Positions 6,995 to 48,951 of a DNA stretch of 64,000 nt are shown piece after piece. The stretch spans positions 1-64,000 of IMG/VR virus record IMGVR_UViG_2928826531_000001, one strand, 5' to 3'. Position 1 is the stretch's first letter, and every line of letters starts with the position of its first letter. A program made the translations under genes and the position numbers. The notes beneath the pieces were generated by a model. That model made no database searches. It saw nothing but the letters and a program-made list of their open reading frames with translations, and was not told the DNA's origin. This stretch comes from a virus. Its lineage: Duplodnaviria; Caudoviricetes.

Positions 6995-7678
6995 ATGGCT
7001 GAAGCGACTTTGGCCCAAAGCAGAGACGCGGTGCAAGGGGGTGTGGCGCGCCGCGCCGCCCGTGACCTCCCCATCATCTTCAGCGCGCCGATGGTGCGCG
7101 CCCTGCTGGACGGCCGGAAGACACAGACGCGCCGCATCCTCAAGCCACAGCCGGAAACGTTCCTCGACGAGCACGGCGAGGCGCTTCCGATTGGCCTGCT
7201 GCATGTCGAGGGCGATCCGCGACCGCGCGTCACCATTGGCCGCGTTGTCACCCTGCAGGAGGTCCGGTACGCGGTTGGCGACCGGCTGTGGGTGCGGGAG
7301 GCCTGGGCCAACATCGCCCCTGGCATCTATTACCGCGCCACCGACGAGCGCGCGGCGCCGGCCGGCACGAAGTGGCGCCCCTCCATCCACATGCCCCGCT
7401 GGGCCAGCCGGATCACGCTGGTGGTCGAGGGGGTGCGGGTCCAGCAGCTGCAGGACATCAGCCCGGACGACGCGCAGGCGGAAGGCGTTCAGAAGTGCCA
7501 TCTGAACTGGAGCGCAGACGGCGAGACCTTTGGAGGCACGCCGCGCGATGCGTTCAGCGCCCTGTGGGACTCGATCAACGGCCCCAGCGCCTGGGATGCC
7601 AACCCGGCCATCGTCGCCCTGACCTTCCGCGTCATCCGTACCAACATCGACTCCCTTTGCACGCAGGAGGCCGCGTAA
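6995..7678 (+). CDS. conserved phage protein (ASCH/PUA-like)
   Basis: PIIFSAPMVRALLDGRKTQTRR...GDRLWVRE...WRPSIHMPRWASRITL...LQDIS..DA.AEG...W..NP. Confidence 0.85.
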   Translation: MAEATLAQSRDAVQGGVARRAARDLPIIFSAPMVRALLDGRKTQTRRILKPQPETFLDEHGEALPIGLLHVEGDPRPRVTIGRVVTLQEVRYAVGDRLWVREAWANIAPGIYYRATDERAAPAGTKWRPSIHMPRWASRITLVVEGVRVQQLQDISPDDAQAEGVQKCHLNWSADGETFGGTPRDAFSALWDSINGPSAWDANPAIVALTFRVIRTNIDSLCTQEAA

Positions 7679-8007
7679 TGGACGACGAAATCCAACAGCA
7701 GAAACGCGTCGCATGGGTCGAGCGCGAATGGCTCTGGTATGTGGTGAACTACCAGCATGTCCCCGGGGCGATCGTCTCGACCGTCAACGCTCGGTTCTGG
7801 ACGCGCCGCGGAGCGCAGGTGGTTGCCGATGTTTTGTGCGGCGCCCATGCGGACGGGTGGGACGTCGGCATTGAGGCCGGCGCAACGAGGTATGATGCGC
7901 TGGTCAGGGAAATGGGCGACGACGGACGGATGTACCGCGGCATCATCGCCGACCTGAAGCGGCGCCTGGCTGTCTCTGGCGATGCTCCGGGGGTGTCCCA
8001 TGGTTGA
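7678..8007 (+). CDS. hypothetical protein
   Basis: GGAGG RBS and TAATG coupling. Confidence 0.6.
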   Translation: MDDEIQQQKRVAWVEREWLWYVVNYQHVPGAIVSTVNARFWTRRGAQVVADVLCGAHADGWDVGIEAGATRYDALVREMGDDGRMYRGIIADLKRRLAVSGDAPGVSHG

Positions 8008-9819: not shown

Positions 9820-9938
9820 ATAAAAACCGCCGCTCCGGCTGGACCCCGAAGCGGCGGCGTAATGTGCTGACGATCAAAGAGCAATCGCATGCGGAAGATA
9901 TCCGCCCGTAAAACTTTCGTCAACGCGGGGGTAACTCG

Positions 9939-10721: not shown

Positions 10722-11195
10722 CGGGCTGTTGGATGCGGTCTCGGGCGGAGCCGCTTCGTGGCGCGCGGGCTCGGGGTTGGGTATGCTCGATAGCCCCCCA
10801 ATCTGGCGTCATCCGCTTTACCGTTACCGCCTAGAGCACGCTCGCCCGGGTCCTTGCGCCGAGCATCATCATGGGGAGTGCTTCCAAACATTCCTGGTTG
10901 CTTGCGGCAACTTTGCGTGCGTTGGATCGCTCTCGCCCTTGCGACCGCCTTACATGTGCCAGTGATTTTGCTCGGCAAAGCGATTGTACATATTTGGAGG
11001 TGCGCGGGTACACCAATAGCTTGTGGAAAGCTGACGGATGCTGTTGCATGATGAATGGCAAAGAGCAACTTTGTGGGCGGTGCCGTGTAACCGAGTGGTT
11101 GTAACTGAAGGCCTCGATGGCTCCGGCTACTGATAGCGACTACTGCGTGGAAGCTGCGGGGCTTAGTACTTCATAAGCGACACCGATTCTTTTTT

Positions 11196-11894
11196 GTGGA
11201 GGGTGGAGTGCGCGCGCCATTGCAATCTATGATGGTATTTATTACCGTTCCGTGGCTGGCCTTTAGTGTCACTCATGTGCAGGCTGAAACCAAAGCGGCT
11301 TGCAGCGTAGACGCTCCCCCAGCTAGCTGTGCAGGGTTGTTTGCCGTTGATGCCACTGGATCAGTGCCAGCTACGGAAAAGCTGGTAAACACTCCTAATC
11401 CGAAATGCGGAGATGGACGCGTATTCGACTACGTAGGTATCTTGAAAGACAGTTTGGCCAAAATGGTTGATGCCAAGAAAATGGCGGACGCATCGGCCGA
11501 TCTTGCCAAAGCCACCGTGCATTTTTTATCTAAAGAAGCTAAGGACAAGCTAGGTGGTGATATCGCAACGGGCATCTGGAGGAATTTTTCCGAAAAAACA
11601 AACGAAGGGAATTGCATTACTCTGTCCGTAATAGTACCGAACAACGCTGAAGTTGTTGGATATCGGATTGTTGCTGGGGAGAGCGGTGGCTCCATGAATA
11701 AATGCCAAGTTGGGCTGGACTGTGGCGTTGGCTACTCCCGATTCCTTCGCGAGCCGGTGGCCGCAATAGAAGAGCAAGGGGTTAAGAGTTACATGACGAC
11801 ATTTATGAACTGGGCGCACGATCGGCAGCGTGATGCACGGTTGGTTATATTCTTCAAAACGATCGATGGGAAGCCGCCCCCGATTGCAATGTGA
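11196..11894 (+). CDS. secreted Cys-rich hypothetical protein (moron, paralog 1; start uncertain)
   Basis: Lower GC, signal peptide ending VQA, C-terminal FMNWAHDRQR motif. Confidence 0.7.
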   Translation: MEGGVRAPLQSMMVFITVPWLAFSVTHVQAETKAACSVDAPPASCAGLFAVDATGSVPATEKLVNTPNPKCGDGRVFDYVGILKDSLAKMVDAKKMADASADLAKATVHFLSKEAKDKLGGDIATGIWRNFSEKTNEGNCITLSVIVPNNAEVVGYRIVAGESGGSMNKCQVGLDCGVGYSRFLREPVAAIEEQGVKSYMTTFMNWAHDRQRDARLVIFFKTIDGKPPPIAM

Positions 11895-11898
11895 GTGC

Positions 11899-12594
11899 AT
11901 GATGCGTCTCATCAGATTGATTGCGAGTTCATTGCTCCCGGGATGTATAATTCTTGGCATTGCCCATAACGGCCACGCGGGATCACGCACCGTGCGCTGG
12001 TGCGAGTACGATCCTAAAAGGACCTGTGTAGCTGGAGAATACGCAACAGTCATCGAAGTCCCGATACCGAATGGCAATTACGTTCAATCTTCGACGCCGT
12101 CATGCCCAAGTAACGACTTTTCGGTGCAGGGAAATCGCGAAAATTTTGTGGTCGGCATCGTTCGCAAGTCCAGTCAGAAGTGGCGTAAGGAAATACGAAA
12201 TTCTGCTGGATCCTTAAATGACTTGGTCTCAAGTCGCGACTATACGGACATCCCCAGCCCCTCCATCCCAGGGTTCGGTGGGGCGGAACATGCGGTGTGT
12301 TCTGCACTTGTAGCTGCTATTCCCCATGACGCTCAGGTCCAGGGAGTGCATCTTGGCTTCACCGATGCTAAGGGCACCAGGGAGTGTAAGCCTTCTGCCG
12401 AGTGCGAATATGCTAGATTCATCGCTCCGCCAAACGTGAGGAGAATACAATTGCTCTCTCGGCCCGGCATTCAAGTAGTTGATGCTTTTTTTATGAATTG
12501 GTCTCACGACCGGAACAGAATTGCATGGATAGCGGTTTTTTACAGTTTTAAAACCGGAGAAATGCCGAAAGCCATTTCGCCGGGCCCTATGTAG
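11899..12594 (+). CDS. secreted Cys-rich hypothetical protein (moron, paralog 2)
   Basis: Lower GC, signal peptide ending GHA, C-terminal FMNWSHDRNR motif. Confidence 0.7.
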   Translation: MMRLIRLIASSLLPGCIILGIAHNGHAGSRTVRWCEYDPKRTCVAGEYATVIEVPIPNGNYVQSSTPSCPSNDFSVQGNRENFVVGIVRKSSQKWRKEIRNSAGSLNDLVSSRDYTDIPSPSIPGFGGAEHAVCSALVAAIPHDAQVQGVHLGFTDAKGTRECKPSAECEYARFIAPPNVRRIQLLSRPGIQVVDAFFMNWSHDRNRIAWIAVFYSFKTGEMPKAISPGPM

Positions 12595-12861
12595 TAATGA
12601 ACTGTAGATTAGGGTCGAAAATTCGCCGATATTTCGGAGGTTGCCCCGATACAGGCGCTTGCGGGCCAGTTTGACTGAGAAGTCGCCGTGCGAACAGTAA
12701 GGGTTTGTGCTCTTTTCAGCGGTGAGAAAAGAGCCCGAGCTTGGGATGGACCCGGAGCGGGTGCGAGACGTGCTCTATGGCATCGATGCCGGGTCCGAAG
12801 GGATCACGATCCGTAAGCCATAGGCGAGCGGGCGCCAAAAACCCTCATCCGGGGGTGCGTG

Positions 12862-13227
12862 TTACGCCGGTTGCCGCTCGGCCAAGAGCCGAATGACCTT
12901 TTTCGGAATCGGCCGGTGGCTGGCTTCCTCTGGGTGCGCCCATCGGCGGGTGTCCGACCTGGTGTAGCTGGTGCCCAGCTTCTCATTCAGCCAGTTGGCC
13001 GCGGCTTGCCATCCGCCCACGCTGTCGGCCCACGCCGCATAGTCTTCGGCCGGCAGCGTGGGTTGAGGTTTGCGTCGAGGGGCCTGGGGAGAGGGTTCGC
13101 AAGGTTCATCCTCCGCCTCAACGATGACGGCAATCACGGCCACGCCGTCGGGGGTCATGACGGGGGCGGGAAGACCGGCGCGCTTGGCGCGGGCGGAGAG
13201 TTCGGCGAAGGTCATCGTCTCAGGCAT
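12862..13227 (-). CDS. putative DNA-binding regulator
   Basis: C-terminal HTH-like region (GGWQAAANWLNEKLG...DTRRWA...RPIPKKVIRLL); apparently leaderless promoter carrying operator repeats. Confidence 0.6.
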   Translation of the reverse strand: MPETMTFAELSARAKRAGLPAPVMTPDGVAVIAVIVEAEDEPCEPSPQAPRRKPQPTLPAEDYAAWADSVGGWQAAANWLNEKLGTSYTRSDTRRWAHPEEASHRPIPKKVIRLLAERQPA

Positions 13228-13233
13228 GGCGAA

Positions 13234-13262
13234 AACCTAGTATGGCGGAATGTATGGCGCAA
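13234..13262 (-). promoter_or_regulatory. sigma70-like promoter with tandem CGCCATAC repeats
   Basis: Minus strand TTGCGC-N17-TAGGTT, then 6 nt to the ATG; the -35/spacer region reads CGCCATACATTCCGCCATAC. Confidence 0.6.
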
Positions 13263-13313
13263 GCGCGGTGCGTGGCGCCACACCGAAAACCCTCACCCGG
13301 GCTCCAAAAACCC

Positions 13314-13802
13314 TCAGCGGGGGTGCGTCCGCTTCAGGGCGTAAACGGTCCAGATCAGCGACGCGATGGCCTTGAGGGTGTAGGCGCCTTCCTCGTCCAG
13401 GCTCAGCCCGAAGTGGTCCAGATCGGACAGGCGGAACGCCGTACCGCTCACGGCGATGAACACGGACTCCGCGTTCCGCCACCCAGCGATCTCACCATAT
13501 GGAGTGAAAACCCGCAGTGCATCGGCCGGAACTTCGACATTCGCCGGCTGGCCATTGCCCACGGCCCGGAACCGCGGATCATCCCGCAGCCTTTCCGCCA
13601 AGCTCCCGCGCAGGATGGACAGCGCCAGATTGGCCGCTTGCTGCAATGCTCCAGCGTCATCCCCAGCAGCGTTGAAGATCCGGGGGAAGATGTCGCCATA
13701 TGGCCCGGGCTTCTCGCCGGCTTCGCACATGGGATGGCCATCCTCAAGCCAGAACGACACCTTGGGGCACTGGGGCAGGTTCAGAAAAGCGATGTGTGCC
13801 AT
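13314..13802 (-). CDS. hypothetical protein
   Basis: 162-aa ORF co-oriented with its neighbours. Confidence 0.55.
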   Translation of the reverse strand: MAHIAFLNLPQCPKVSFWLEDGHPMCEAGEKPGPYGDIFPRIFNAAGDDAGALQQAANLALSILRGSLAERLRDDPRFRAVGNGQPANVEVPADALRVFTPYGEIAGWRNAESVFIAVSGTAFRLSDLDHFGLSLDEEGAYTLKAIASLIWTVYALKRTHPR

Positions 13803-13919
13803 TTTGCGTGTCCAAAGCTGAAAGGTTGCGGGAAGGTCAGTAGAGGGCTGGCGGGAGCTTGTCCACTCCCCAAAAACCCCCGCCGGGGGTGCGCGTCCGA
13901 AAAACCGCGCCGGGGGTGC

Positions 13920-15938
13920 TCAGGCATCAATGACGACGATCCGGGTTGAAACACCGGTGCCGCTTTCCTGGAAGGAACCGGCCGGAAGCCGTTCCGAGGT
14001 GCCGCCCACGCTGTCGAGCCAAGCCCGGAACTCCTCTGCCTTCCGATCGGAGCGGAAGAAGGGGCTTTCCGCCATGATAGCTACCAATCGGCCGCCGGGC
14101 TTCAGCATGCCGAAGGCGCGCCGAACATGGTCGGTATCTGCCAAGCCTTCAAAGGGCGGGTTCATACCGATACGGTCGTATTGCCCTTCATGTTCGAAGA
14201 AGTCCCATCCCGCCAGGGTGTAGCCCTTGGCGTTCAGGAGGTTGCGCAGGGTGCCGTTAATCTCCAGCACCGTCACGCCGTCTTTGCCCACGGTCTCCGC
14301 CATGACGTCGGCGATATCGCCCGCACCGGCGGAAGGCTCAAGCACTGAATGGCCGGGCCGCAGGTCCAGCAGGTCAATCACGCGCCGCGCCAAGCTGGCG
14401 GGGGTGCGGAAGAAACCGGGAATCTTGCGGCCCAGCAGATCCCGTAAAGCGGCTTTGATCGGATCGGCCTTCGGCGCATCGCTGGAGAGTTCCACGAACC
14501 GCGCCGCAGCTTCCCGCAGCTGGCCAGTGGTCAGGATCCCCATAGCGCGCAAGCGGTGGCCGTCGTCATCCGCTGGAAACTCGATATGCACCAGATCGGC
14601 CGCGGTTGCCTTCCGGCCCTTCCGGTCAATCTGTTCCGGGTAGCTCAGCCCGGAATCCGCCCTATAGCAGGCGCGGCGGATGAGGGAGCGGAACAACTCG
14701 GATTGTTTGGCCGTGCTCACCTTCGCCAAGGCGCCGGCGGTGCCGTCCTGCTGCGCTTCACCGATGGCGCGGAGAGTGCGCGCCAAAGTGATTTGGCGTT
14801 GCGCGTCGACTTCTACGCTGGCCGCCATGCTGGCGCGCCGTGGCGTGTTGGTCAGGCGATCGCGGGAGAGCACCTCCTGGGCGCGCGCTTCGATCCGATC
14901 CGCCAAGGCGAACAGTTTATTTTGAGTCCCAAAAACCTCCGGAGGGGGTGCGGCATGCGTCGATTCCGCCGCGTAGGGACTCTCCGCACTCTCCGGCTTG
15001 CCCGTGCCGGGCCCGTCATCCGGGCCGGCGGGCGGAGTGTCGGAACCGGCCAGCAGATCGACCAGGGAGGCGCGCACCTCGCTTTCACGAGACAGGGGGA
15101 AGATCCATCCGCTGGCTTGGCGATGCCAGAACGGGGCAAGCCCGGAAACGGCGGACTTGATCCGGTCTTTATGGGCCAGGGTTTCGCCCTTCACGATGAT
15201 GGACTTTTCCGAGTAGGGCTCAATCCGCAGGGGAGCAGCCCCGGCGGAAACCGGGGGTGCGCTGGTCTCGACAATCGTCGGCCCGTTCACAGCCGCGCGG
15301 ACTTCGGTGCACACCTCGGCGCGCGCCTCCTCCAGCGACTCGGCCCGGACTTCGGTGCGCCGTGTGGCTACGCGCGCGGGCTTGGCTATGATCGCTTTAG
15401 GCTTGATGGTGACGGACCGCGGAACGGACAGGATCCAAGCCTTGTGCGTCTGCTCCAGTTCCCACGCGAATTTGACATCGAGGTGATAATTCGTATTGAA
15501 ATAGTCCGTCATGGAATCGGACTTGTCATAGCGCCACTGCGACGCAATCGCCTGCAGGATGTCGGAAAGCGCCTTTGCCGCATCGGTCATCCGCTGCTGA
15601 GCCTCGTACGGCGCGTGAAAGCCCGCGCATTCGTGCGGGTGGTCCGCCTGCCAACGGACATTCTCCGGGTTGAGGATCAGAAACGGCACCGCTTGGATCT
15701 CGACCGTCACGGAACCATGGTGGGGAGAGCGGACGGAGATCTTGACGCCCTGGGGAATGGTGCCGGATTTCTCCGCTTCCTTGAGCGCCGCGCGGATCAG
15801 TTTGTTTCGGTCCGCGTCGCGCATGTGTCGGCCGTCGCGCTCCATGAGACCGCCGAAGGGATACAGGCTTTGCAGCGCGTCCGCGCGGTCATGCTTGGGA
15901 AGGGCGGCAAGGTCGGCAAACTTCACGGTGCTGCGCAT
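13920..15938 (-). CDS. polyvalent protein: LPD29-like N-terminus + small domains + C-terminal N6-adenine DNA methyltransferase
   Basis: GVKISVR...YDKSDSMTDYFNTNYH; YSEKSIIVKGET..HKDRIK...GWIFP; GFFRTP, VLEPSAGAG, MNPPF, LKPGGRLVAIM, LP.GSF.ESGT.V. GGAG RBS before ATG 15938. Confidence 0.88.
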   Translation of the reverse strand: MRSTVKFADLAALPKHDRADALQSLYPFGGLMERDGRHMRDADRNKLIRAALKEAEKSGTIPQGVKISVRSPHHGSVTVEIQAVPFLILNPENVRWQADHPHECAGFHAPYEAQQRMTDAAKALSDILQAIASQWRYDKSDSMTDYFNTNYHLDVKFAWELEQTHKAWILSVPRSVTIKPKAIIAKPARVATRRTEVRAESLEEARAEVCTEVRAAVNGPTIVETSAPPVSAGAAPLRIEPYSEKSIIVKGETLAHKDRIKSAVSGLAPFWHRQASGWIFPLSRESEVRASLVDLLAGSDTPPAGPDDGPGTGKPESAESPYAAESTHAAPPPEVFGTQNKLFALADRIEARAQEVLSRDRLTNTPRRASMAASVEVDAQRQITLARTLRAIGEAQQDGTAGALAKVSTAKQSELFRSLIRRACYRADSGLSYPEQIDRKGRKATAADLVHIEFPADDDGHRLRAMGILTTGQLREAAARFVELSSDAPKADPIKAALRDLLGRKIPGFFRTPASLARRVIDLLDLRPGHSVLEPSAGAGDIADVMAETVGKDGVTVLEINGTLRNLLNAKGYTLAGWDFFEHEGQYDRIGMNPPFEGLADTDHVRRAFGMLKPGGRLVAIMAESPFFRSDRKAEEFRAWLDSVGGTSERLPAGSFQESGTGVSTRIVVIDA

Positions 15939-16129
15939 TGGGCGGACTCCAGGCGATAGGCGGCCGAGTGACGGCGCCAAAGTGGTTTGACTGGGTTTGA
16001 AAAACCGCGGTGGGGGTGACCCAAAAGCCGCGCCGGGGTGTCCCCTACCGGGGTATCGATCCGGTTTCCGAGCAGCCCGGCATGCCATCGGGACCGCTGG
16101 GGAGCCGGCCCGAAGGCCGGTGCGGGCGA

Positions 16130-16315
16130 TTAGCGGACCACGTCCACCAGAAGTCGGGTACCGCCATAACTCCCAGGACCGCGCAAGCGGTTGTGCATGT
16201 CGGCACTCTGCAACTCGCCTTGCCACGCGCTCACGCTGTAGGGGATCCGGCGGATCTCCGTTTTGTTGTCGGCAACGTCGACCGCGTAGACGACTACGAA
16301 TTTCGGGTTGTCCAT
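16130..16315 (-). CDS. small hypothetical protein
   Basis: GGAG RBS; MDNPKFVVVYAVDV... Confidence 0.5.
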   Translation of the reverse strand: MDNPKFVVVYAVDVADNKTEIRRIPYSVSAWQGELQSADMHNRLRGPGSYGGTRLLVDVVR

Positions 16316-16319
16316 GACG

Positions 16320-16739
16320 TCAGCACTCCACACGGGCTTCAGCAACAGCCGCGCGTGCCGCGGCGATGACGAGCACGGCAAACTGACTATGGTTCGGATC
16401 CGATGCGGCGATTCGCTCCAGAGTGGCGAGCATTCGCGGTGCTGCAGCATTCATCGCGGCTTTGGTGGCATTGTGTTCCCGAAGCCTTCCCATCCACTCC
16501 GCGTCACGCGCGGCCGCATCAGGCACGGCGCGGCGAGAAGACGCCGTTTCGTTTGCCATCATTTCCGCCGCGACCTTGGCCGGGTTGCGCTTGGCCTTGG
16601 TGGCGTCCGAGCTGGTAGGGTAGGCGTAGGACGTCAGGCCGGTTTCCGTGTCGCCAGCGAGAAACCCGCCTTCGGGAGTGTGCATGTAGAGGATGGTCAC
16701 TGTCTGATCTCCGCTAAGCGGCGTCGCCGCGTTCTTCAT
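16320..16739 (-). CDS. hypothetical phage protein
   Basis: C-terminal AAAPRMLATLERI...ARAAVAEA phage motif; probable leaderless start just after TTGCCA-N18-TACATT. Confidence 0.65.
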   Translation of the reverse strand: MKNAATPLSGDQTVTILYMHTPEGGFLAGDTETGLTSYAYPTSSDATKAKRNPAKVAAEMMANETASSRRAVPDAAARDAEWMGRLREHNATKAAMNAAAPRMLATLERIAASDPNHSQFAVLVIAAARAAVAEARVEC

Positions 16740-16743
16740 GCCC

Positions 16744-16866
16744 AAATGTATGGCGTTGTGGTGCGTGCTGGCAACGGGCGAATGCACCACAAAGATGCAT
16801 AGCGTTCATGCGCAGAATGTATGGCATTCAGGATTTACAGGGAAGCGCTAAAACGCCATACATTCC
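16744..16866. promoter_or_regulatory. divergent promoter region with three AATGTATGGC motifs
   Basis: AAATGTATGGCG 16744, GAATGTATGGCA 16815, inverted CGCCATACATTCC 16854. Confidence 0.7.
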
Positions 16867-16911: not shown

Positions 16912-18960
16912 ATGTCGCACGTCGTTACTGACACCGCCGCTCTTCTGGCCCAAATTGCCGAGCTACAGGCACAGCTTGCCGCGGCCGGTTCCGCTCCGCT
17001 TGCCAAGCCGAAGGCCGCGCGCAAGCCGCGCAAGCCCAAGCTGGTCAAGCTTCCGGAACTGGCCACGGTCCGCGTGACCTTCGCCGACGGCGTGACGATG
17101 CACACCAACGCTTCCCACGCATTCGAAGACGGGACGGTCGACACCTCTCGCGCCGTTGCCTATGCCGAGTCTGTGCGCCGTAACAACGCGGCCGGTTATG
17201 CGACGGAGAGCGGATCCACCCTGTCCGGCAATTGGGAATGGGTGAATACGGAAAAGGGGTGGCGCCTTCGGCCGGTTGCGGATGTCCCGACCGTGACGGA
17301 AGTCCATGTGCTGACCCAAGCCGAACAGGATGCTTTGCGTGAGGAACATCGCGTTTGGTTCCGCGGCGCGGTCCCTGCAAATGCGGAGATCGCGGCTGCG
17401 GCTTCCTGGAGCGCGCGGGTTGAAGCTACGGGCAATGATGCCGCCGCGGAAGCCGTTCACACGGAAGCGGCTGCCGAGGAGGTGGCCGAAACTTCCGTTT
17501 CGTGCGAAGGCGCTGACAACCCGTTGCATGTCATCCGCGGCGATGTCGACCGCACGGTATCAGGCCGGATGGAAATTTGCTCGGCTGCCCTGGCGGATAC
17601 GGCCTATGGCCGTGCGCGTGCCGATGCCGTGCGAAACGCCATTACGGCGCGCGGCGGTTCGGAACAGGATGCCGCCGCGGCCATGGTCCGCGCCATCGGC
17701 GACTATGAAGGCGGAACCATGCCGCCGGCCGGCAAGGCGCGTGAGCTGGTCTGTGCGCAAGTCGCGGCGGAGTGTGGCGATACCGAAGGCGCGGCACCAA
17801 TGGCCAGCAAGCCCGAATCCCTTGGCGCGGCCATGGTGCACCATGCCGCCCCCACCTGTCCGCTTTACTTGGAAGGATACGACGGCGACGCCAACCCGGA
17901 CGCAGCGCCGGAGGTGTCGCGCTATGCGGCCTTTGCCGCGCGTCATGGGATGGCCGCTCTGTGCGTGGTTGGGCTGCTGTCCATCCTGTCCGGCCGGTAT
18001 CTGCGCCGCATGATCGAACACGCGGCGGAACGGGTTGCCGCGCGGTCCGGCATCGTCTCGCTTGACGAGGTGGGAATCTACATCGCGGCCAGCATGACGC
18101 GCCCCGGCAAGCCCGGGAAGGCGCCGCGGCCAGTTTGGGAGATCTCCGGGGATACCAAGGGGTATGCGGACTGCATCAAAGCCATTGGCGCGAAATGGTG
18201 GGGCGGCAAGTGGTCCACCTGGAATGATCCGACTGCGGCGCTTGTGGCGGAGATCAACGCCAATGGTGGACGCCGCTCGTTCGCCGAACGTCTGGACGTT
18301 ATCCGGGAACGCGCTGCCGAACGGGCGGACCGGTTGGAGGAGCGCGCGGAACGAGTCACGGCGGAAGCGGGCCGGCGGTATAGGGCTGCGAAGTCCCTGG
18401 CCAGCTTCATTCCCATGGGGCAGCCGATCTTGGTGGGGCACCACTCCGAAGGCCGCCACCGTCGCGACCTGCGGCGCATTGAAAGCGGCATGCGGAAATC
18501 CTTCGAGTTGAGCGGCAAGGCAGACGGTCTGCGGCGCCGCGCGGCGACGGCCGAACAGACGGCCGAAGGCCGGACCGATCTGCGGTATCTGGCCAACCGG
18601 TTGAAGGAGGCGGAAACCAACCTGCGCGACATCGAACGTCGCTTGAACGGCACGAGCCGGAAGGAGCCAGCCGGCCCGATGAGCGATGATCGGCGCGCCT
18701 TCCTGGAGAAGCGCAAGGCGGAGTATGCGGAACGCGCGGCCTATTGGCGTGCCCAAGTCGACGCAGCCGGCGGCATCCCGTCTAAGGCACAGTTCAGCAA
18801 GGGCGGCACGGTGCAGTATGGCGGCCAGTGGTATCCCGTCGCCCGCGTCAATCGGGATACCGTCACGGTGTCGAATTGGCTTGGCGTGGCGTCGCTGACC
18901 TTCCGCGTTCCGCTCGCCCGCGTTTCCGGTTATCAGGCACCCGCGGCCATGGCCGCATAG
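16912..18960 (+). CDS. DUF3560-containing polyvalent protein
   Basis: ERAAERADRLEERA...IPMGQPILVGHHSEGRHRRDLRRI..GMRKS.E...KA; R.LANRLKEAE..LRDIERRL. Confidence 0.9.
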   Translation: MSHVVTDTAALLAQIAELQAQLAAAGSAPLAKPKAARKPRKPKLVKLPELATVRVTFADGVTMHTNASHAFEDGTVDTSRAVAYAESVRRNNAAGYATESGSTLSGNWEWVNTEKGWRLRPVADVPTVTEVHVLTQAEQDALREEHRVWFRGAVPANAEIAAAASWSARVEATGNDAAAEAVHTEAAAEEVAETSVSCEGADNPLHVIRGDVDRTVSGRMEICSAALADTAYGRARADAVRNAITARGGSEQDAAAAMVRAIGDYEGGTMPPAGKARELVCAQVAAECGDTEGAAPMASKPESLGAAMVHHAAPTCPLYLEGYDGDANPDAAPEVSRYAAFAARHGMAALCVVGLLSILSGRYLRRMIEHAAERVAARSGIVSLDEVGIYIAASMTRPGKPGKAPRPVWEISGDTKGYADCIKAIGAKWWGGKWSTWNDPTAALVAEINANGGRRSFAERLDVIRERAAERADRLEERAERVTAEAGRRYRAAKSLASFIPMGQPILVGHHSEGRHRRDLRRIESGMRKSFELSGKADGLRRRAATAEQTAEGRTDLRYLANRLKEAETNLRDIERRLNGTSRKEPAGPMSDDRRAFLEKRKAEYAERAAYWRAQVDAAGGIPSKAQFSKGGTVQYGGQWYPVARVNRDTVTVSNWLGVASLTFRVPLARVSGYQAPAAMAA

Positions 18961-29434: not shown

Positions 29435-31465
29435 ATGAGCCAGATGTCCCCGGGGGCCGCAGAACTGCTGGGGCGGTGGGCTAGTCTCCTGCGCCCACCA
29501 CCCAAACGGTTCACCGACGAATGGGCCGCAGAGAGCGTCGAGATGCCGCCGACGTCGGGCATCCCCGGCCCCTATGACGCCTCGCGCACTCCCTACGTGA
29601 TTCCGATCATGCGGGCCTTCGATAACCCGCGCTGGAAGATGATCGTGGTCGTCATGGGGTCGCAGATGGGCAAGACGCTCGCGTTCGCGATCATCATCGG
29701 CCGCCGCATGGACGACGACCCGGTCCCGATCATGTATGTGGGTCCGGACCGCAACTTCGTGGAAGACACCTTCGAGCCGCAATTCATCTCGCTTGTGAAG
29801 TCGTGCAAATCGCTGTTCCGGAAGACGATCTGGGGAAAGGCGCACAAGAAGGTCCGCAAGATCATCAACGGTGCGGTGCTCCGTCTGGCCTGGGCCGGCT
29901 CCGCCTCCCAGCTCGCCGGCCAGCCCGCTGGCATGGTGCTGGTGGACGAACGTGACCGCATGGGCGATGACGTCAAGGACGAAGGCGACCCGGTAACCCT
30001 CGGCGGGGCCCGCCTGCACTCCTACGCCAACGGCAAGGTCGGGGTGATCTCTACCCCTCTTGTGGGCAACGTCGACACCTACGTGCACCCGGACACAGGG
30101 CTGGAGCACTGGAAGTATTCGGACCCCGATGACTTGACCAGCCCAACGTGGAAGCTGTGGCAGGAGGGAACCCGCTTCGAATGGGCGTGGCCGTGCCCGC
30201 ATTGCGGGGAATACTTCATTCCGCGGCTGTCCCGCCTCACCTGGAACAAGCCGGAAGGGCGCAAGGTTACACCGGCGGAAGCGGCCCGCTCTGCTCGCAT
30301 GACCTGTCCGAACCCAGCGTGCGACAGCAACACGCACGGGCTGGTGATCGATGATTCCCACAAGGTGTGGATGAACGAGCGCGCCGTCTTCGTGGCCCCC
30401 GGGCAGCGCGTAGAGAAGGACGGGACGGTGGTCGGTGAACTGCCCGACACCGACATCGCCAGCTTCTGGGTGTCCGGCCTTGCGTCCAATTTCGTGTCGT
30501 GGGGCGATCGCGCGAAGGAGTTCGTCAAGGCCGCCCGGTCCAAGAACAAGAAGGCCATCCAGGCGACCATCAACACCGGCTTCGGCGAGTTGTACCGCCT
30601 GTCTGGAGACGCGCCGAAGCATGACGTGGTGCTGGCCTGCCGCCTTCCTTACGCCTCGGGGGAGGTGCCCTATGGCGTGCAGAAGCTGAGCCTCACCGTC
30701 GACGTCCAGAAAGACCGCCTCTATTACGTCGTCCGGGGTTGGGGCGCCCGGTGGGAGAGCTGGCTCATCAAGGCGGACGCGCTGTTCGGCGAAACCGACC
30801 AGGATCACGTCTGGAACGACCTCGCCGACGTGCTGCAGGCTGAGTACCAAGGGTTCACGATCTCTCTGTGCCTGATCGACTACGGTTATCGTCCGGGCGA
30901 CAAGGAGAAACGGCCGACGCACGCAGTCGCGGACTTCTGCCGGCGGTTCGGGTTCCACCGGGCGCGCCCGATCCAGGGCAAGGCGGAACTGCCGAGGCCC
31001 ATCATGACCTTCAAGCTCGACGTCGACACCAAGGGCAAGACCAGGACCTATGGCGTGACTGGCCACCACCTTGACACGGACGTGTTCAAGACCTGGGTGC
31101 ACGGGCGTTTGGAATGGCCGGCGGACCAGCCCGGCGGCTGGCACCTGCCGGAGGACATCGACGAGGATTACGCCCGCCAGATCGTTTCGGAAAGCCGCAT
31201 GGCGCTGCCGTCGGGCAAAGGCAAATGGGTGAAGCACGGCGAGAACCACTACCTGGATGCGGAGATGATGCAACGCGCGGCGGCCGAGCTCATGGGCGTG
31301 GCGACCATGCAGCCGCTGCCCGAACAGACGCCGATGGCTGCTGATGAAGAGGAAGAGGCCCCGCGGGTGCGGCTGGCCAATCCCCCGCCAAAGACGGCCG
31401 AGGCCGCGACGGTCCGCCAGAACAGTTGGCTGGGCAATGCACGGAAGGATTGGCTGCGCCGATAG
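29435..31465 (+). CDS. terL: terminase large subunit, lambda GpA family
   Basis: GPY..SRTPY; SQMGKT; LVDERDR; ISTP; PCPHCGE; TVDVQKDR; NHYLDAE. Confidence 0.96.
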   Translation: MSQMSPGAAELLGRWASLLRPPPKRFTDEWAAESVEMPPTSGIPGPYDASRTPYVIPIMRAFDNPRWKMIVVVMGSQMGKTLAFAIIIGRRMDDDPVPIMYVGPDRNFVEDTFEPQFISLVKSCKSLFRKTIWGKAHKKVRKIINGAVLRLAWAGSASQLAGQPAGMVLVDERDRMGDDVKDEGDPVTLGGARLHSYANGKVGVISTPLVGNVDTYVHPDTGLEHWKYSDPDDLTSPTWKLWQEGTRFEWAWPCPHCGEYFIPRLSRLTWNKPEGRKVTPAEAARSARMTCPNPACDSNTHGLVIDDSHKVWMNERAVFVAPGQRVEKDGTVVGELPDTDIASFWVSGLASNFVSWGDRAKEFVKAARSKNKKAIQATINTGFGELYRLSGDAPKHDVVLACRLPYASGEVPYGVQKLSLTVDVQKDRLYYVVRGWGARWESWLIKADALFGETDQDHVWNDLADVLQAEYQGFTISLCLIDYGYRPGDKEKRPTHAVADFCRRFGFHRARPIQGKAELPRPIMTFKLDVDTKGKTRTYGVTGHHLDTDVFKTWVHGRLEWPADQPGGWHLPEDIDEDYARQIVSESRMALPSGKGKWVKHGENHYLDAEMMQRAAAELMGVATMQPLPEQTPMAADEEEEAPRVRLANPPPKTAEAATVRQNSWLGNARKDWLRR

Positions 31466-31667: not shown

Positions 31668-31886
31668 ATGGCCCTCACCCAAGCCTTTCTGGACAAGCTG
31701 GTGCAGGCCTGGGCCACCGGTGCGCGCCGTGTCGAATACAGCGGCACCGTGACCGAGTTCACGTCGGGCGCCGATCTGGAGCGCCGGATTGCCGTCACCG
31801 CGAACGCGCTCGGCGTGCCGAACCCGCTCAGCGCCGCGGCTCCGGCCGCCCGCGCGCCATCCATCCTTTTGCAGTTCCGCCGGTAG
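31668..31886 (+). CDS. gpW-like head-tail joining protein
   Basis: LDKL..A.ATGARRVEY.G.V.EF.S..DL; lies between terL and portal. Confidence 0.85.
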   Translation: MALTQAFLDKLVQAWATGARRVEYSGTVTEFTSGADLERRIAVTANALGVPNPLSAAAPAARAPSILLQFRR

Positions 31887-31890
31887 CGCC

Positions 31891-33483
31891 ATGAAAGCCA
31901 ACTGGCTCGATCGCGCCATCGGGGTCGTCTCCCCGGCGGCGCAGCTCCAGCGCATGCGTCATCGGGCGGCCATCGATGTGATGGCGCGCGCCTACGATGC
32001 GGCCCAGCCGAGCCGCCGCCGCGAAGGCCGGCGTCCGCCGAACACGGGCGCGAACGCCGAAACCTGGTCGTCTTTGCGCGTGCTGCGCGGCGCCTCGCGC
32101 GAGGCCGTACGGAATTCCGGGTACGCGGCGAAAGCCGTCCGAACCTTGGCGACCAAGCTGGTCGGCACCGGAATCACCCCGCGCGCGGATACCAAGAACG
32201 AGAAGCTCGACAAGGAGATCAATGACGCCTTCGAGATCTGGCGGAAGGAGTGCGACGCGGCCGGTACGCACGATTACTATGGCCTGCAACGTCTCGCCGC
32301 CCGGTCCTTCTTCGAAGGGGGTGAGGCGCTGACCAGAAAGCGGATGCGCTTCCGCCGCGACGGCCTGTATGTGCCGCTCGAGCTCCAGATGCTGGAGCCG
32401 GATCATCTGGACGAGACGAAAAACGAGATCATGGCCAATGGCCGCATCGTCCAGGGCATCGAGACCAGCAACGGGCGCGAGCGCCGGGTGGCCTACTGGC
32501 TCTTTCCAGACCATCCCGGCGAACGCGTTGGCCTGATCCGTGGCGGCGGCCTTGAGCCGAAGTCGGTGCCGGCCGACGAGGTGGCGCACTTCTATGACAA
32601 GCTGCGCATCGGGCAGCAGCGTGGCGTGCCCTGGCTTACGTCCGTCCTGATCGCCCTGGAAGATCTGGGCGACTACCGCGTCTCGGAGCAGATGCGGAAG
32701 AAGCTGGAAGCGTGCTTCGTCGGCGCGGTCATTGGGGAGGGGGACGGCAACGACGGTCAGCTTGGGCCGCGCGCGGTCGACGCAACGGGCCAGCTTGTCG
32801 AGACCGTTTCGCCCGGTATGCTGTTCCGCGCCACCGGCGCCAAGCAAGTCCAGTTTCACCAGCCGACCACCAACCCGGACTACCCGGGCTACATCAAAAG
32901 CGAGTTGCGCGGCGTCGCCGCCGGCGCGTGCATGACGTACGAGCTGCTGACCGCCGACCTATCGGACGTCAACTATTCCAGCTACCGGGCCGGTCTGAAC
33001 GACTTCCACGCGATGATCGATCAGCTTCAGTGGCTCGACTTCATCCCGATGTGGTGCGAGCCGACGTGGCGCTGGTTCATCGACGCGGCCTATCTGGCGG
33101 GCCGCATCTCGCAGCGTCATTACGGCGTCGCCTGGGAGCCCCCGAAGTTCGTGTCCCCGGACCCGCTCAAGGACTTCCTCGCCGATTTGGGCGAGGTGCG
33201 CGCCGGCTTCCAGGCGCCGCAGCAGGCGATCGCGCGCCGGGGCTACAACTGGCGCGAACTGCTCGCCCAGCACATCGAGTGGAAGAAGGCCGTCGGCGAC
33301 GCTGGCCTGGTGTTCGACATCGACCCGAGCAAGGTCACCAAGACCGGTGCGGCGAACAACGTCCAAGATGCGCCGCCGGGCGACCGCGCCATGACGCTCG
33401 CCCGCGCCGCGCTCGACATGCTTGAGGCTGAGGGCGATCCCGACGCCGCCACGCTCCGCGCCCTGATCGAGCAGCGCGGCTAA
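31891..33483 (+). CDS. portal protein, lambda family
   Basis: NWLDRAIG..SP; AYDAA; VGTGI.P; QQRGVPWL; TYE.LT.DLS.VNYSS.RAG; DPLKD. Confidence 0.96.
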   Translation: MKANWLDRAIGVVSPAAQLQRMRHRAAIDVMARAYDAAQPSRRREGRRPPNTGANAETWSSLRVLRGASREAVRNSGYAAKAVRTLATKLVGTGITPRADTKNEKLDKEINDAFEIWRKECDAAGTHDYYGLQRLAARSFFEGGEALTRKRMRFRRDGLYVPLELQMLEPDHLDETKNEIMANGRIVQGIETSNGRERRVAYWLFPDHPGERVGLIRGGGLEPKSVPADEVAHFYDKLRIGQQRGVPWLTSVLIALEDLGDYRVSEQMRKKLEACFVGAVIGEGDGNDGQLGPRAVDATGQLVETVSPGMLFRATGAKQVQFHQPTTNPDYPGYIKSELRGVAAGACMTYELLTADLSDVNYSSYRAGLNDFHAMIDQLQWLDFIPMWCEPTWRWFIDAAYLAGRISQRHYGVAWEPPKFVSPDPLKDFLADLGEVRAGFQAPQQAIARRGYNWRELLAQHIEWKKAVGDAGLVFDIDPSKVTKTGAANNVQDAPPGDRAMTLARAALDMLEAEGDPDAATLRALIEQRG

Positions 33484-33503: not shown

Positions 33504-35618
33504 ATGACGACACCGACCCAAGGGGCGGCGCCGGGCGGTGCCGCTTCGCAGCAGCGCGGCACGCCGGACCAGCCCATTCAGATGCGGGCCGCCAACCTGG
33601 AGCCGGCCTCCTTCAACGCGGATGACCGCACGGTCGAGCTGGTGGCCTCCACCGGTGCCACCGTCCGCCGCTATGACTGGTGGACCGGCGAGCAGTACGA
33701 CGAGGTGCTGCTGGTCACCGCCGACGCGGTGGATCTGACCCGGTTCGAGGCCGGCAGCGTGCCGATCCTGAACGCCCACAGCCAGTGGGAGGTGAAGGAC
33801 ATCATGGGCGCCGCCGTCCCCGGCACGGCCCGCTTTGAGAGCGGCAGCCTGATCCTGACGGCCAAGCTGTCGTCCCGCGACGACGTTGCCGGGTTCGCCC
33901 AGGATGTCGCCGACGGCATCATCCGCAACGTCTCGGTCGGTTACCGCGTCCTCGGCTACGAGGTTGACGAAACCACCAAGCCGAAAACCCGCACCATCAC
34001 GAAGTGGGAGCTTCTAGAGGTGTCCTTCGTCCCGGTCGGTGCCGACGGCGCGGCCGGAACGCGCGCCTTGCCGGACACCGCTCCCGCTCAGGCCCGCCAC
34101 GCGGAGGGCGCCCAGCCCGCCGCTACCGTCAACGTGACCATCGACACGGCCGGCATTGCCACAGCCGTGACCGACGCCGTTTCCCGCGCGGTCGCCGCGC
34201 ACTCCCCCCACCAGGACAGCCAAGGAGACACCCGCATGTCCGTGCAGACCAATCCGGCGGCCGAGCCCACGCCGTCCGAGTCCCCGATCGAGAACCGCTC
34301 GGCCCCGCCGCAGCCCGCCGCTCCGGCGCCGGCCCCCGCCCCGGATCTGACCGCCATCCGGGCGGCCGAAGACGCGCGCCTGCGGGAAATCCGCTCCATC
34401 GCCGCCAACCCGGCCTTCGGCGTCGGCGACGAGATGCTGTCGCGTGCGATCACCGATGGCACCTCGGTCGCTGACTTCCGCGCCGTGGTGCTGGAGGAGA
34501 TGGGCAAGCGTCACGCGCAGCAGCCGGAGACGCACGGCAGCATCACCATCGTGCGCGATGAGGGTCAGACCCGCGCCGACTCCGTGGTCGAGTACCTGCT
34601 GTACCGCACGGATCCGAACCGCAACAAGCTGACCGAGCGCGCCCGCGGCTTCGTCGGCTGCAGCATGGTCGAGTTGGCCCGCGAGTTCGTCGGCGGTGGC
34701 GCCCGTGGCCTGGACCGTGCCGAGATCGTCCGGCGCGCCATGCACACCACCTCGGACTTCCCCTACGTGCTGGGCGCGACGCTGCGTCGCACGCTGCGGA
34801 CCAGCTACGAGAGCGTGGCGCTCACCTTCACGCCGTTCGCCCGGCGCACCACGCTGGCCGACTTCCGCGCGACCTCCCGCGTCCGCCTGGGCGCGGCGCC
34901 GTCGCTGCTGAAGGTGAACGAGGCGGGCGAGATCAAGGCCGGCAGCTTCAAGGACACCGGGGCGTCGATCCAGCTGGAGACCTACGCGCGCCAGCTTCGG
35001 GTGACCCGCCAGATGCTGATCAACGACGATCTGAGCGCCTTCACCCAGATCCCGGTGGCCTTTGGCGCGGCGGCGGCCCGCCTGCAGAACGACCTTGTGT
35101 GGGGTCTGATCACCAGCAACCCGGTGCTCGCCGACGGCAATCCGCTGTTCGACGCCTCTCACGGCAACTTGGCTGCGGCCGGAACGGCGCTGTCCGTGAA
35201 GTCCATCGCCACGGCCGACGCCGCTATGGGCAAGCAACAGGACGACAACGGCGCCGATCTGAACCTGATGCTGCGGTGGCTCCTGGTGCCGCGCGAGCTG
35301 CGCCAGGTGACCGACACCATCATCGCCGGCAAGGTCACCGCGACCAAGGCCGACGATGCGGTGCCGGCGTACATGACCGACCTCGGCTACGTCACCGACG
35401 GGCGCCTGTCGCGCGCCTCGGCCACCTCCTGGTACGGCGTCTGCGACCCCAACGCCTTCGACACGCTGGAATTCGCGTACCTCGAAGGCGAGGAGGGCGT
35501 GCAGACCACGGACATGGAGAAGGTCCAGGGCGTGGACGGCCTTGCCATGGAGGCTCGCCTGGACTTCGCGGCGGCCATCATCGACCACCGCGGCTTCTAC
35601 AAGAACCCGGGCGCCTGA
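33504..35618 (+). CDS. prohead protease-major capsid fusion protein
   Basis: RTVELVASTGA.V.R; ILNAH; GIIRNVSVGY; ELLEVSFVPVGAD; MHTTSDFP; AYLEG.EG; RG.YKNPGA. Confidence 0.95.
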   Translation: MTTPTQGAAPGGAASQQRGTPDQPIQMRAANLEPASFNADDRTVELVASTGATVRRYDWWTGEQYDEVLLVTADAVDLTRFEAGSVPILNAHSQWEVKDIMGAAVPGTARFESGSLILTAKLSSRDDVAGFAQDVADGIIRNVSVGYRVLGYEVDETTKPKTRTITKWELLEVSFVPVGADGAAGTRALPDTAPAQARHAEGAQPAATVNVTIDTAGIATAVTDAVSRAVAAHSPHQDSQGDTRMSVQTNPAAEPTPSESPIENRSAPPQPAAPAPAPAPDLTAIRAAEDARLREIRSIAANPAFGVGDEMLSRAITDGTSVADFRAVVLEEMGKRHAQQPETHGSITIVRDEGQTRADSVVEYLLYRTDPNRNKLTERARGFVGCSMVELAREFVGGGARGLDRAEIVRRAMHTTSDFPYVLGATLRRTLRTSYESVALTFTPFARRTTLADFRATSRVRLGAAPSLLKVNEAGEIKAGSFKDTGASIQLETYARQLRVTRQMLINDDLSAFTQIPVAFGAAAARLQNDLVWGLITSNPVLADGNPLFDASHGNLAAAGTALSVKSIATADAAMGKQQDDNGADLNLMLRWLLVPRELRQVTDTIIAGKVTATKADDAVPAYMTDLGYVTDGRLSRASATSWYGVCDPNAFDTLEFAYLEGEEGVQTTDMEKVQGVDGLAMEARLDFAAAIIDHRGFYKNPGA

Positions 35619-48524: not shown

Positions 48525-48951
48525 CCTTGCCGGCAACGAAGAGCGCGCCCCTCAATTGACAGCCTTGTGACACTCACCTTGAGCGTGACAGGCGGAGCGG
48601 GGCATGGTACATAGGTTATGGTGGCGCTTCGGGTGTCCGCGTGGCTTCCGCACTCATCATTTGAGCGACTCTTAGCATCGCCGGAATCCGTCTGTGCTGT
48701 GTTGATAACCGCGCGACACGCACGTTTTGGTCGTGTCAGCCGACATGCCAACACTTTCGACCACCGCTGTCCCGACGAAAAGCAGCATCGCAGCCAACAC
48801 GACACCCAAGCAATTCTAACGACGCCAGCCAAAATAACCTCTTGGTAGAGGAGGGCATGGTGGCTCGCGTTTTGTGATCTATCGGATTTTGAGTGAGTGT
48901 CCCTAGGGCGCCCGGCATGCCGTGCGCCCTTCTCGTATTCGGAGCGCGCCC

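Follow-up and report, generated by a model that had tools for sequence, protein, structure and literature searches.

The systems closest to the element discussed here are the promoter-early stem-loops (PeSLs) of T4-type myoviruses. In the accounts of Arbiol et al. (2010; PMC2839356) and Comeau et al. (2014; PMC4122927), PeSLs are composite terminator/promoter motifs of hyperplastic regions, built in the order stop codon, poly-G/poly-C stem-loop with G-T pairs, promoter. As described there, insertions and deletions (indels) in these plastic regions end at PeSLs, a polymerase gene has PeSL-like sequences at a domain linker or split, and terminator activity, promoter activity and mini-circles have been demonstrated (PMC2839356; PMC4122927). 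Morons, as portrayed in one published account, bring their own promoter and terminator and have a deviant GC content (PMC3594210). The stoperators of cluster A mycobacteriophages are presented as fixed 13-bp sites that occur genome-wide and are bound by the immunity repressor (PMC6550527; PMC9283540). Here we analyze a repeated motif, AAAAACC-N5-7-GGGGGTG, in a 64,000-nucleotide stretch of phage DNA (positions 1 to 64,000 of IMG/VR record IMGVR_UViG_2928826531_000001). This stretch, referred to below as the window, covers the initial 64 kb of contig C8 (95.6 kb) in genome G000 (9.73 Mb, 68% GC, 10 contigs). The motif is confined to one arm of small minus-strand genes, and we give an even chance to the reading that it is a 3' boundary element of the PeSL or moron kind, combining a weak transcription attenuator with microhomology for the exchange of accessory cassettes.

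Six copies of the motif lie between positions 12837 and 16018, all on the plus strand, in agreement with the positions and sequences of the six strong copies listed in a first-pass annotation of this DNA. In mRNA sense the motif reads GCACCCCC-(3-6 nt loop)-GGGG-UUUUU-GG, that is, a C-run, a G-run, and a U-tract. The pattern AAAAMC-N4-12-GGGGTG gives 12 matches in the window, which are the same six sites, each found at two offsets. The expectation from 100 shuffles is 0.14 per window, and none of the shuffles reached 12. Scanned for half-sites on both strands of all 10 contigs, the genome yields seven perfect instances of AAAAACC-N(2-10)-GGGGGTG, six of them within 3.2 kb of C8 and one on contig C10. 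Allowing up to two mismatches adds only 16023 and 16660 on the plus strand of C8, and the 95.6 kb of the C8 minus strand lack the motif even at this tolerance. A covariance model built from the six copies detects nothing further in the window at E < 0.1, save the palindromic third copy on the opposite strand. The single orientation and the absence of the motif from the rest of the window, both noted earlier, are thus borne out, and with one perfect copy outside the arm in 9.73 Mb the motif is rare elsewhere in the genome. Among 69 genomes of the genus, none has more than one exact match to the pattern, apart from G000 (six plus one) and the related genome G009 (two). In IMG/VR, 29 loci match a 16-base version of the pattern, and a single provirus contig, L026, has more than one copy. 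A search for known RNA families between 9 and 24 kb found none, the lone match being noise (E 0.38).

GC content by codon position and family matches place all genes of the arm on the minus strand. All full intergenic copies follow a minus-strand stop codon and carry their T5 run on the mRNA-sense strand. Copy s1 (12835-12859; CGCACCCCCGGATGAGGGTTTTTGG in mRNA sense; 29.9 bits, E 9e-6) starts 4 nt past the TAA (12862-12864) of a 121-aa gene (12862-13227). The loop of s2 (13304-13327; 36.4 bits) contains the TGA (13314-13316) of a 162-aa gene (13314-13802), and its G-run codes for the C-terminal His-Pro-Arg of the product. Copy s4 (13897-13920; 33.4 bits) adjoins the TGA (13920-13922) of a 672-aa gene (13920-15938), and its tandem partner s3 (13870-13893; 37 bits) comes 28 nt later, 6 nt upstream of a -35-like box. 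Copy s6 (15997-16020; 25.2 bits) and a weak copy, s6w, are found between the 672-aa gene and a probable two-gene unit read from the reading frames (16320-16742, then 16130-16315, stop and start 4 nt apart), with s6 upstream of the promoter-like box of the 672-aa gene. The s6 pair comes after a separate stem-loop, CCGGCC-UUCG-GGCCGG in mRNA sense (16105-16120, minus strand), 10 nt past the stop of the gene at 16130, so the arm uses 3' hairpins besides the motif. As in PeSLs, the start of the element is tied to a stop codon: s1, s2, and s4 stand 0-4 nt from, or across, the stops of three transcription units, while s3, s6, and the weak copies s2w and s6w are in tandem with stop-adjoining copies or further downstream. 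Copy s5 (14929-14952) lies in frame within the 672-aa gene.

Two of the three weaker copies proposed earlier stand. One is s2w (13283-13303; plus strand GAAAACCCTCACCCGGGCTCC; 10.7 bits, E 2.9; repeat family D2), listed at 13286, a 21-nt unit in tandem with s2. The other is s6w (16021-16043; plus strand CAAAAGCCGCGCCGGGGTG; two mismatches; family D6), listed at 16023 and in tandem with s6, itself listed at 16000. The third, at 15248, turned out to be only the right half, GGGGGTGCG, without a spacer. The pairing of copies at gene boundaries also holds, at 13286/13306, 13872/13900, and 16000/16023, and the view of the motif as directional, restricted to one arm and placed at gene boundaries is confirmed.

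Two related arms were found, one in a chromosomal element of G009 and one in L026. The G009 arm is 80% identical to C8 over window positions 12895-16757, and the L026 arm is 81% identical to C8 and about 90% identical to G009. Beyond the arm the three elements share little DNA; their contexts are mosaic, with rearranged modules. Further relatives were sought in several collections. By DNA, the phage collection gave only matches to the methyltransferase domain, in Pseudomonas F116-like phages. Genome contigs searched with the 672-aa protein (P0001) gave distant matches only, and metagenome contigs searched with the alignment and the s5 sequence gave nothing. Viral contigs (pattern and two alignments) and genomes of the genus and order yielded none beyond G009 and L026.

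Positional conservation in relatives, on which the first-pass annotation had made its idea depend, is found: a three-way alignment and a covariance-model search place motif copies at the same gene ends in C8, G009, and L026. The best-kept part is the A-run with the C-run that follows it. The right half drifts at some sites of the relatives (GGGGCTG, GGGGATG, AGGGATG, AGGGTGG), where the A-run is kept, and the G009 orthologues of s3 and s6 are degenerate. No motif copies are present at seven further Azospirillum loci that encode homologues of the methyltransferase or N-terminal domain. In G061, the 162-aa gene has a distant homologue whose operon, tight and with overlapping genes, lacks the motif, which indicates that the motif goes with the architecture of the arm and not with the gene.

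The cassette-level differences between the three arms have motif copies at their edges. The left limit of the three-arm homology is s1. In G009, two copies, s1a and s1b, are adjacent at this end, and L026 has an extra 173-aa gene (7327-7848) exactly between their counterparts, with both junctions inside motif copies. A second cassette present only in L026 (11194-11499; a 101-aa gene that brings its own two hairpins, one being of the motif type) directly adjoins the s6 pair, and past it the gene found at 16130 in C8 and G009 is replaced by different genes. The 21-nt unit of s2w is present in C8 only and corresponds to a 21-nt gap in both relatives. In total, all large indels of the arm touch a motif copy or a neighboring hairpin, although the events are few. 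The plasticity thus resembles that of PeSL regions, with the motif confined to the arm in all three elements and indels bounded by its copies, and the L026-only cassettes together with the replacement of the 16130 gene show the presence or absence of whole units typical of morons. The copies themselves also appear to exchange sequence. The loop of s4 in C8 (CCGCGCC) is of the s6w type, unlike its orthologues (CCCCTCT), and the s3/s4 pair aligns with the s6/s6w pair as a 30-nt unit at 77%, which suggests gene conversion between copies. Of the four roles that the first-pass annotation had offered (injection stop, packaging slow-down, stoperator-like site, cassette-exchange junction), only the last gains support, in that indels and swaps among the three elements end at copies.

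At the outermost position, s1a of the relatives has the form ACCCT-CTCC-AGGGT, a perfect stem on both strands. The site (L026 7163-7300; G009 18390-18435 on the reverse complement of L011+L012) lies between the arm and the end of a convergent plus-strand gene, and in both relatives s1a comes directly after a GANTC site (GATTC).

Promoter-like boxes can be recognized upstream of each unit, placed between a motif and the start codon that comes after it, all on the minus strand. The candidate for the 121-aa gene (13234-13262; TTGCGC-17 nt-TAGGTT) ends 6 nt before the ATG. That for the 162-aa gene (13837-13865; TGGACA-17 nt-TACTGA) was missed by the promoter scan. Both were read by eye and lie in blocks nearly invariant in the three relatives. 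A third candidate, also read by eye, precedes the 672-aa gene (15953-15980; TTGGCG-16 nt-TATCGC), and the fourth, upstream of the 16742 start, comes from the scan (16774-16745; TTGCCA-18 nt-TACATT). The arm therefore looks like four consecutive units of promoter, gene or genes, and motif. The four boxes differ from each other, and the repeat families span only the stem-loop and A-run part.

Based on these observations, we propose that the arm is a row of small, independently promoted, moron-type cassettes on the minus strand, each ending in the motif. The RNA of the motif would form a short C-run/G-run stem-loop followed by a U-tract, placed 0-4 nt after or across the stop codon and ahead of the next promoter. 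It could then act as an intrinsic terminator or attenuator, weak or leaky, and thereby insulate adjoining cassettes, and such leakiness would explain why tandem copies are frequent. Since the copies are direct repeats of about 24 nt, they could also provide microhomology for the insertion, deletion, swap, and gene conversion of cassettes, which is the way PeSLs are described to work. The sequences show where the copies lie, their polarity, their restriction to the arm, their conserved placement in the relatives, and the motif-bounded indels; we infer termination, promoter activity, and a recombination mechanism that acts at the motif, as distinct from the recombined outcome. A stronger version of the second role is possible but doubtful. 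In it, the ~24-nt repeat would be an active exchange site at which the anti-defense cassettes of this family of temperate Azospirillum phages come, go, and are shuffled, possibly via excised mini-circles like those reported for PeSLs. If so, the arm would be an integrase-independent, integron-like cassette array in a lambda-type phage.

A conserved C-run and G-run separated by a loop of variable length favors a stem-loop over a rigid double-stranded site. The earlier description of an A-tract and a G-tract roughly one helical turn apart is less apt, as the 5-7 nt spacer between the C-run and the G-run fits a stem-loop better. A stem of this kind can be drawn for most copies; s3 alone has one of 6 bp that is perfect on either strand (ACCCCC/GGGGGT, loop GCC).

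Several results speak against the proposed boundary element. Most mRNA-sense stems are weak: s3 stands at about -10 to -11 kcal/mol, and the other five perfect copies at -3.1 to -7.0 kcal/mol. When the four gene boundaries with a motif, the in-frame copy, and the non-motif hairpin were folded in mRNA sense, none of these six arm segments was more stable than expected from dinucleotide shuffles (z from -0.73 to +1.37). Covariation among 16 copies (15 distinct) is at the level of the control: 85.6% of cells are paired against 84.2% after shuffling, and 126 of 500 shuffles score as high, in a test that has little power as any C pairs with any G. The terminator scan missed all the motif hairpins and at s2 returned an alternative one instead. 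The plus (antisense) strand folds slightly better, with a mean of -7.8 against -6.7 kcal/mol and the lower energy in 17 as opposed to 8 of 25 copies. We do not take this edge as evidence of a function on the plus strand because a G-rich strand is expected to behave in this way and because the relatives also change the right arm. The flank GTGCG is kept beyond what a hairpin needs, which, like the solitary half-sites discussed below, hints at sequence-specific recognition. A terminator within an open reading frame, as s5 would be, is awkward. Finally, only three related arms are present in the collections searched, so the evidence from junctions comes down to few events.

The in-frame copy s5 codes for AAPPPEVF in the linker between the N-terminal and methyltransferase domains of the 672-aa protein. 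Its conservation is not exceptional: the three-way identical run at s5 is 25 nt long, the eighth longest of the nine runs of at least 20 nt in this gene. The peptide AAPPPEVFG is also present in P0004, a 62%-identical homologue, where a 20-residue insertion follows it, and more distant homologues have only a generic Ala/Pro linker. The two-domain architecture predates the motif, so s5 is not the relic of a gene fusion at a boundary. Either a copy has become embedded here or the coding sequence matches by coincidence, and the latter is very unlikely, with ~0.002 expected per 2 kb strand when scaled from the shuffles. If the repeat is an active exchange site, s5 in the methyltransferase linker would be a docking point for domain swaps, and its position raises an idea about module swapping in multi-domain "polyvalent" phage proteins more generally. 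In all three elements, s5 is preceded by a GANTC site.

The alternative that the motif is a sequence-specific protein site on DNA or mRNA, that is, a stoperator-like roadblock or regulator site whose effect depends on its orientation relative to transcription and which is perhaps bound by the 121-aa protein, is in our view unlikely. It would account for the uniform orientation, for the conservation of the flank GGGGGTGCG outside the stem, and for a hairpin that neither covariation nor folding supports statistically. It also draws on the half-site octamer GGGGGTGC, of which C8 has eight on the plus strand, seven of them in the arm, and none on the minus strand. Two of the seven are solitary and lie inside the 672-aa gene (14400-14407 and 15253-15260) in motif orientation and in two different reading frames, and the host count of the octamer is just 421. 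This distribution hints that there is room for sequence-specific recognition. The solitary octamer at 15253 is kept in G009, and the one at 14400 is not. The 121-aa protein is modeled with a four-helix C-terminal half (pLDDT 72, moderate confidence) and its top fold matches are helix-turn-helix DNA binders, but none reaches E 0.001, the best stands at E 0.83, and the protein has no family match. The geometry is also unfavorable to a protein site: a spacer that varies from 5 to 7 nt, and more so in the relatives, does not suit a rigid double-stranded site, the C-run of one half can pair with the G-run of the other, and the right half drifts in relatives where the A-run stays. It is slightly less probable still that the copies have no present molecular function and are neutral footprints of cassette insertion, tandem slippage, and gene conversion, as in a selfish or passive repeat family. 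The 21-nt unit indel, the tandem pairs, the exchanged loop type, the in-frame linker copy, the decay of stems in the relatives, and the unexceptional identity run at s5 (eighth of nine) would all fit such a history. Against a neutral repeat stand the retention of the A-run and C-run at five of six orthologous boundaries over ~20% divergence, where flanking intergenic DNA has diverged or become unalignable, and the fact that each cassette, including those found only in L026, ends 3' in such an element.

We attach very little weight to a directional signal on double-stranded DNA for genome entry, packaging, or end protection, whether an injection stop, a terminase slow-down, or a Chi-like site. 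The single polarity and the clustering of copies within 3.2 kb would fit such a signal, yet the polarity follows the orientation and stop codons of the minus-strand genes and so carries no independent information. A packaging signal metered 3-6 kb before cos is not supported by the distance between the arm and the large terminase gene, which is 15.6 kb in C8 and 8.7 kb in the L026 provirus (G154); in G009 the search gave no close terminase in the vicinity of the arm and only a partial terminase-like match, 33% identical, 32 kb away. An injection stop like that of T5 fares no better, given a polarity tied to transcription and surrounding modules that are otherwise mosaic and rearranged among the relatives. 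Unlike Chi, GGGGGTGC is slightly under-represented in the host, with 421 occurrences in 2 x 9.6 Mb where 473 are expected (z -2.4; rank 51,949 of 56,710 octamers), and a Chi-like site was rejected on this ground. Just as remote in our estimation is a hairpin of the plus (template) strand that would arise by extrusion in supercoiled DNA or by folding of single-stranded DNA and act, for instance, as a hairpin promoter or priming signal. On that strand, G-T wobbles complete 6-bp helices in s1, s2, and s5, where the mRNA sense has C-A mismatches, and the genes of the arm look like early anti-restriction functions (an orphan methyltransferase fused to a match annotated as "released upon infection", with DUF3560 nearby). 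The folding asymmetry is, however, small and in the direction expected for a G-rich strand, and the right arm mutates in the relatives too. In addition, the copies track stop codons and not a fixed distance from starts, and the phage is a lambda-type double-stranded DNA phage in which no virion RNA polymerase turned up, though no systematic search for one was made.

Some further candidates were considered and dropped. Mimicry of a host CRISPR repeat, as in an RNA anti-CRISPR, was set aside as a simple scan of the genome for 18-mers repeated at least four times at 50-95 nt spacing gave no CRISPR-like array. A host REP-like element or general host terminator does not agree with the C10 copy and a site conserved in 13 other genomes of the genus, which are both in divergent promoter regions and do not follow stop codons. 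Sigma-54, nut/boxB, ops, and frameshift sites were dropped after a comparison with their consensus sequences by eye. In s5, a -1 slip at the U5 run would soon meet a stop in C8 and is not conserved in the relatives. A promoter UP-element is disfavored because the T-run lies 6 nt from the -35-like box at s3 and over 20 nt from it at s2 and s6.

The element that carries the arm is a lambda-like temperate phage, a siphovirus, of Azospirillum, an alphaproteobacterial host of 65-68% GC. Its lambda-type virion genes include a gpA-type large terminase (29435-31465), a lambda-family portal (31789-33483), a protease-capsid fusion (33504-35618), and a tape measure protein (48922-53106). The only Phage_integrase match of the contig, a tyrosine recombinase, is at C8:74774-75319, about 59 kb from the arm. 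The nearest relatives of the 672-aa protein, the largest product of the arm, carry the source label Azospirillum brasilense. Its C-terminal domain matches the DNA methyltransferase phrog_15406 (5e-89), and its N-terminal part, which an Ala/Pro-rich linker joins to it, matches phrog_1926, "released from the phage upon host infection" (6e-12). The other genes of the arm, namely those for 121 and 162 aa and the two of the two-gene unit, have no family assignment. The region between 10 and 14 kb has a GC content of 0.576-0.595 (0.58-0.60), against 0.63-0.70 in the rest of the window, and GC at third codon positions is 0.74-0.78 in the arm genes against about 0.78-0.87 in most adjoining phage genes. 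Both deviations are consistent with added cassettes.

The surroundings of the arm have several other features. Adjoining s1, window positions 10800-12800 form 2 kb of only 45-57% GC, compared to ~65% for the phage, with no counterpart in G009 or L026. The long open reading frames of this segment (11196-11894 and 11830-12594, both plus strand) show flat GC across the three codon positions; neither has a Pfam match, and the second also has no PHROG match. At 9826-9858 on the minus strand there is a strong canonical terminator, a 13-bp stem followed by TTTTTATTT, facing minus-strand transcription. Its sequence is unrelated to the motif, so the phage also employs ordinary strong terminators. On the other side and divergent to the arm, a plus-strand gene (16912-18960) encodes a 682-aa protein with a DUF3560 domain (3.5e-28). 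In other genomes, homologues of the 672-aa methyltransferase protein bear ArdC-N or polyvalent-protein domains (PF08401, PF18847). Together, DUF3560 and these homologues suggest an anti-restriction or early-function island that takes in the whole region.

Another repeat, (A)ATGTATGGCG, overlaps two of the promoter-like boxes, at 13238-13262 that of the 121-aa gene and at 16738-16757 that of the 16742 gene. An inverted pair of it (GAATGTATGGC ... GCCATACATTC; 16815-16830 and 16851-16866) stands between the divergently oriented 16742 and DUF3560 (16912) genes. Both relatives, G009 and L026, keep the repeat, which probably serves a shared regulator as its operator. At the 121-aa gene (ATG at 13227) and the 16742 gene, the -10-like hexamers are placed just 6-7 nt before the ATG, and the mRNAs of these two genes may be leaderless.

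Compared to the known systems, the integron attC site shares a position at the 3' end of cassettes, a common orientation, imperfect inverted repeats, and a possible overlap with the end of the open reading frame. However, attC sites are 57-141 bp long, have R''/R' core sites, and accompany promoterless cassettes beside an intI integrase. The motif is ~24 nt long and, by eye against the consensus, has no such core sites, its cassettes have promoter-like boxes, and the only tyrosine recombinase of the contig is about 59 kb from the arm. Stoperators, as described, are likewise asymmetric, mainly in one orientation relative to transcription, and often at gene boundaries. The equation of the motif with stoperator-like sites fails on both length and spread: the spacer varies from 5 to 7 nt in C8 and still more in the relatives, and there are no perfect copies outside 12.8-16.1 kb of the 95.6 kb contig. 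The motif also has self-complementary halves and a T-run.

Morons, whose original description is reportedly that of Juhala et al. in 2000, offer a closer parallel. In both cases, single genes or small units have a promoter (here a promoter-like box) upstream and a terminator (here a hairpin and T-run read from sequence) downstream, their GC content differs from that of the surrounding phage (lower in the arm), and whole units are present in some relatives and absent from others. Classical morons differ in being isolated insertions with unrelated terminators, whereas here several stand in a row with one near-identical terminator-like sequence.

The likeness is greatest to PeSLs as described in the published accounts. 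Both are short intergenic repeats that begin at the upstream stop codon, contain C/G tracts that form, or here could form, a stem-loop with G-T pairs, and stand next to the promoter, or here the promoter-like box, of a small gene of unassigned function. Both are found in a plastic accessory region where indels or replacements between close relatives end at the motifs, and the PeSL-like sequence at a domain linker or gene split parallels s5. The differences concern the repeated unit, the number of copies, and the kind of phage. In PeSLs the promoter belongs to the repeated unit, and here only the stem-loop and T-run part is repeated. There are about eight copies in one 3.2 kb arm, in contrast to about 50 genome-wide in the PeSL accounts, and the stems are shorter (5-6 bp). 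The activities of PeSLs have been demonstrated in those accounts, while the present motif is known from its sequence. PeSLs belong to T4-type myoviruses, and the motif to a lambda-like temperate siphovirus of a GC-rich alphaproteobacterium. If the motif is indeed a boundary element of the PeSL or moron kind, the PeSL principle would extend beyond T4-type lytic phages, and a repeat that both insulates and exchanges cassettes would exist in temperate lambda-type phages of GC-rich soil and rhizosphere bacteria as well. Such a repeat would then provide a sequence handle for finding plastic cassette arrays, probably with anti-restriction or defense genes, and for delimiting cassettes of unassigned function.

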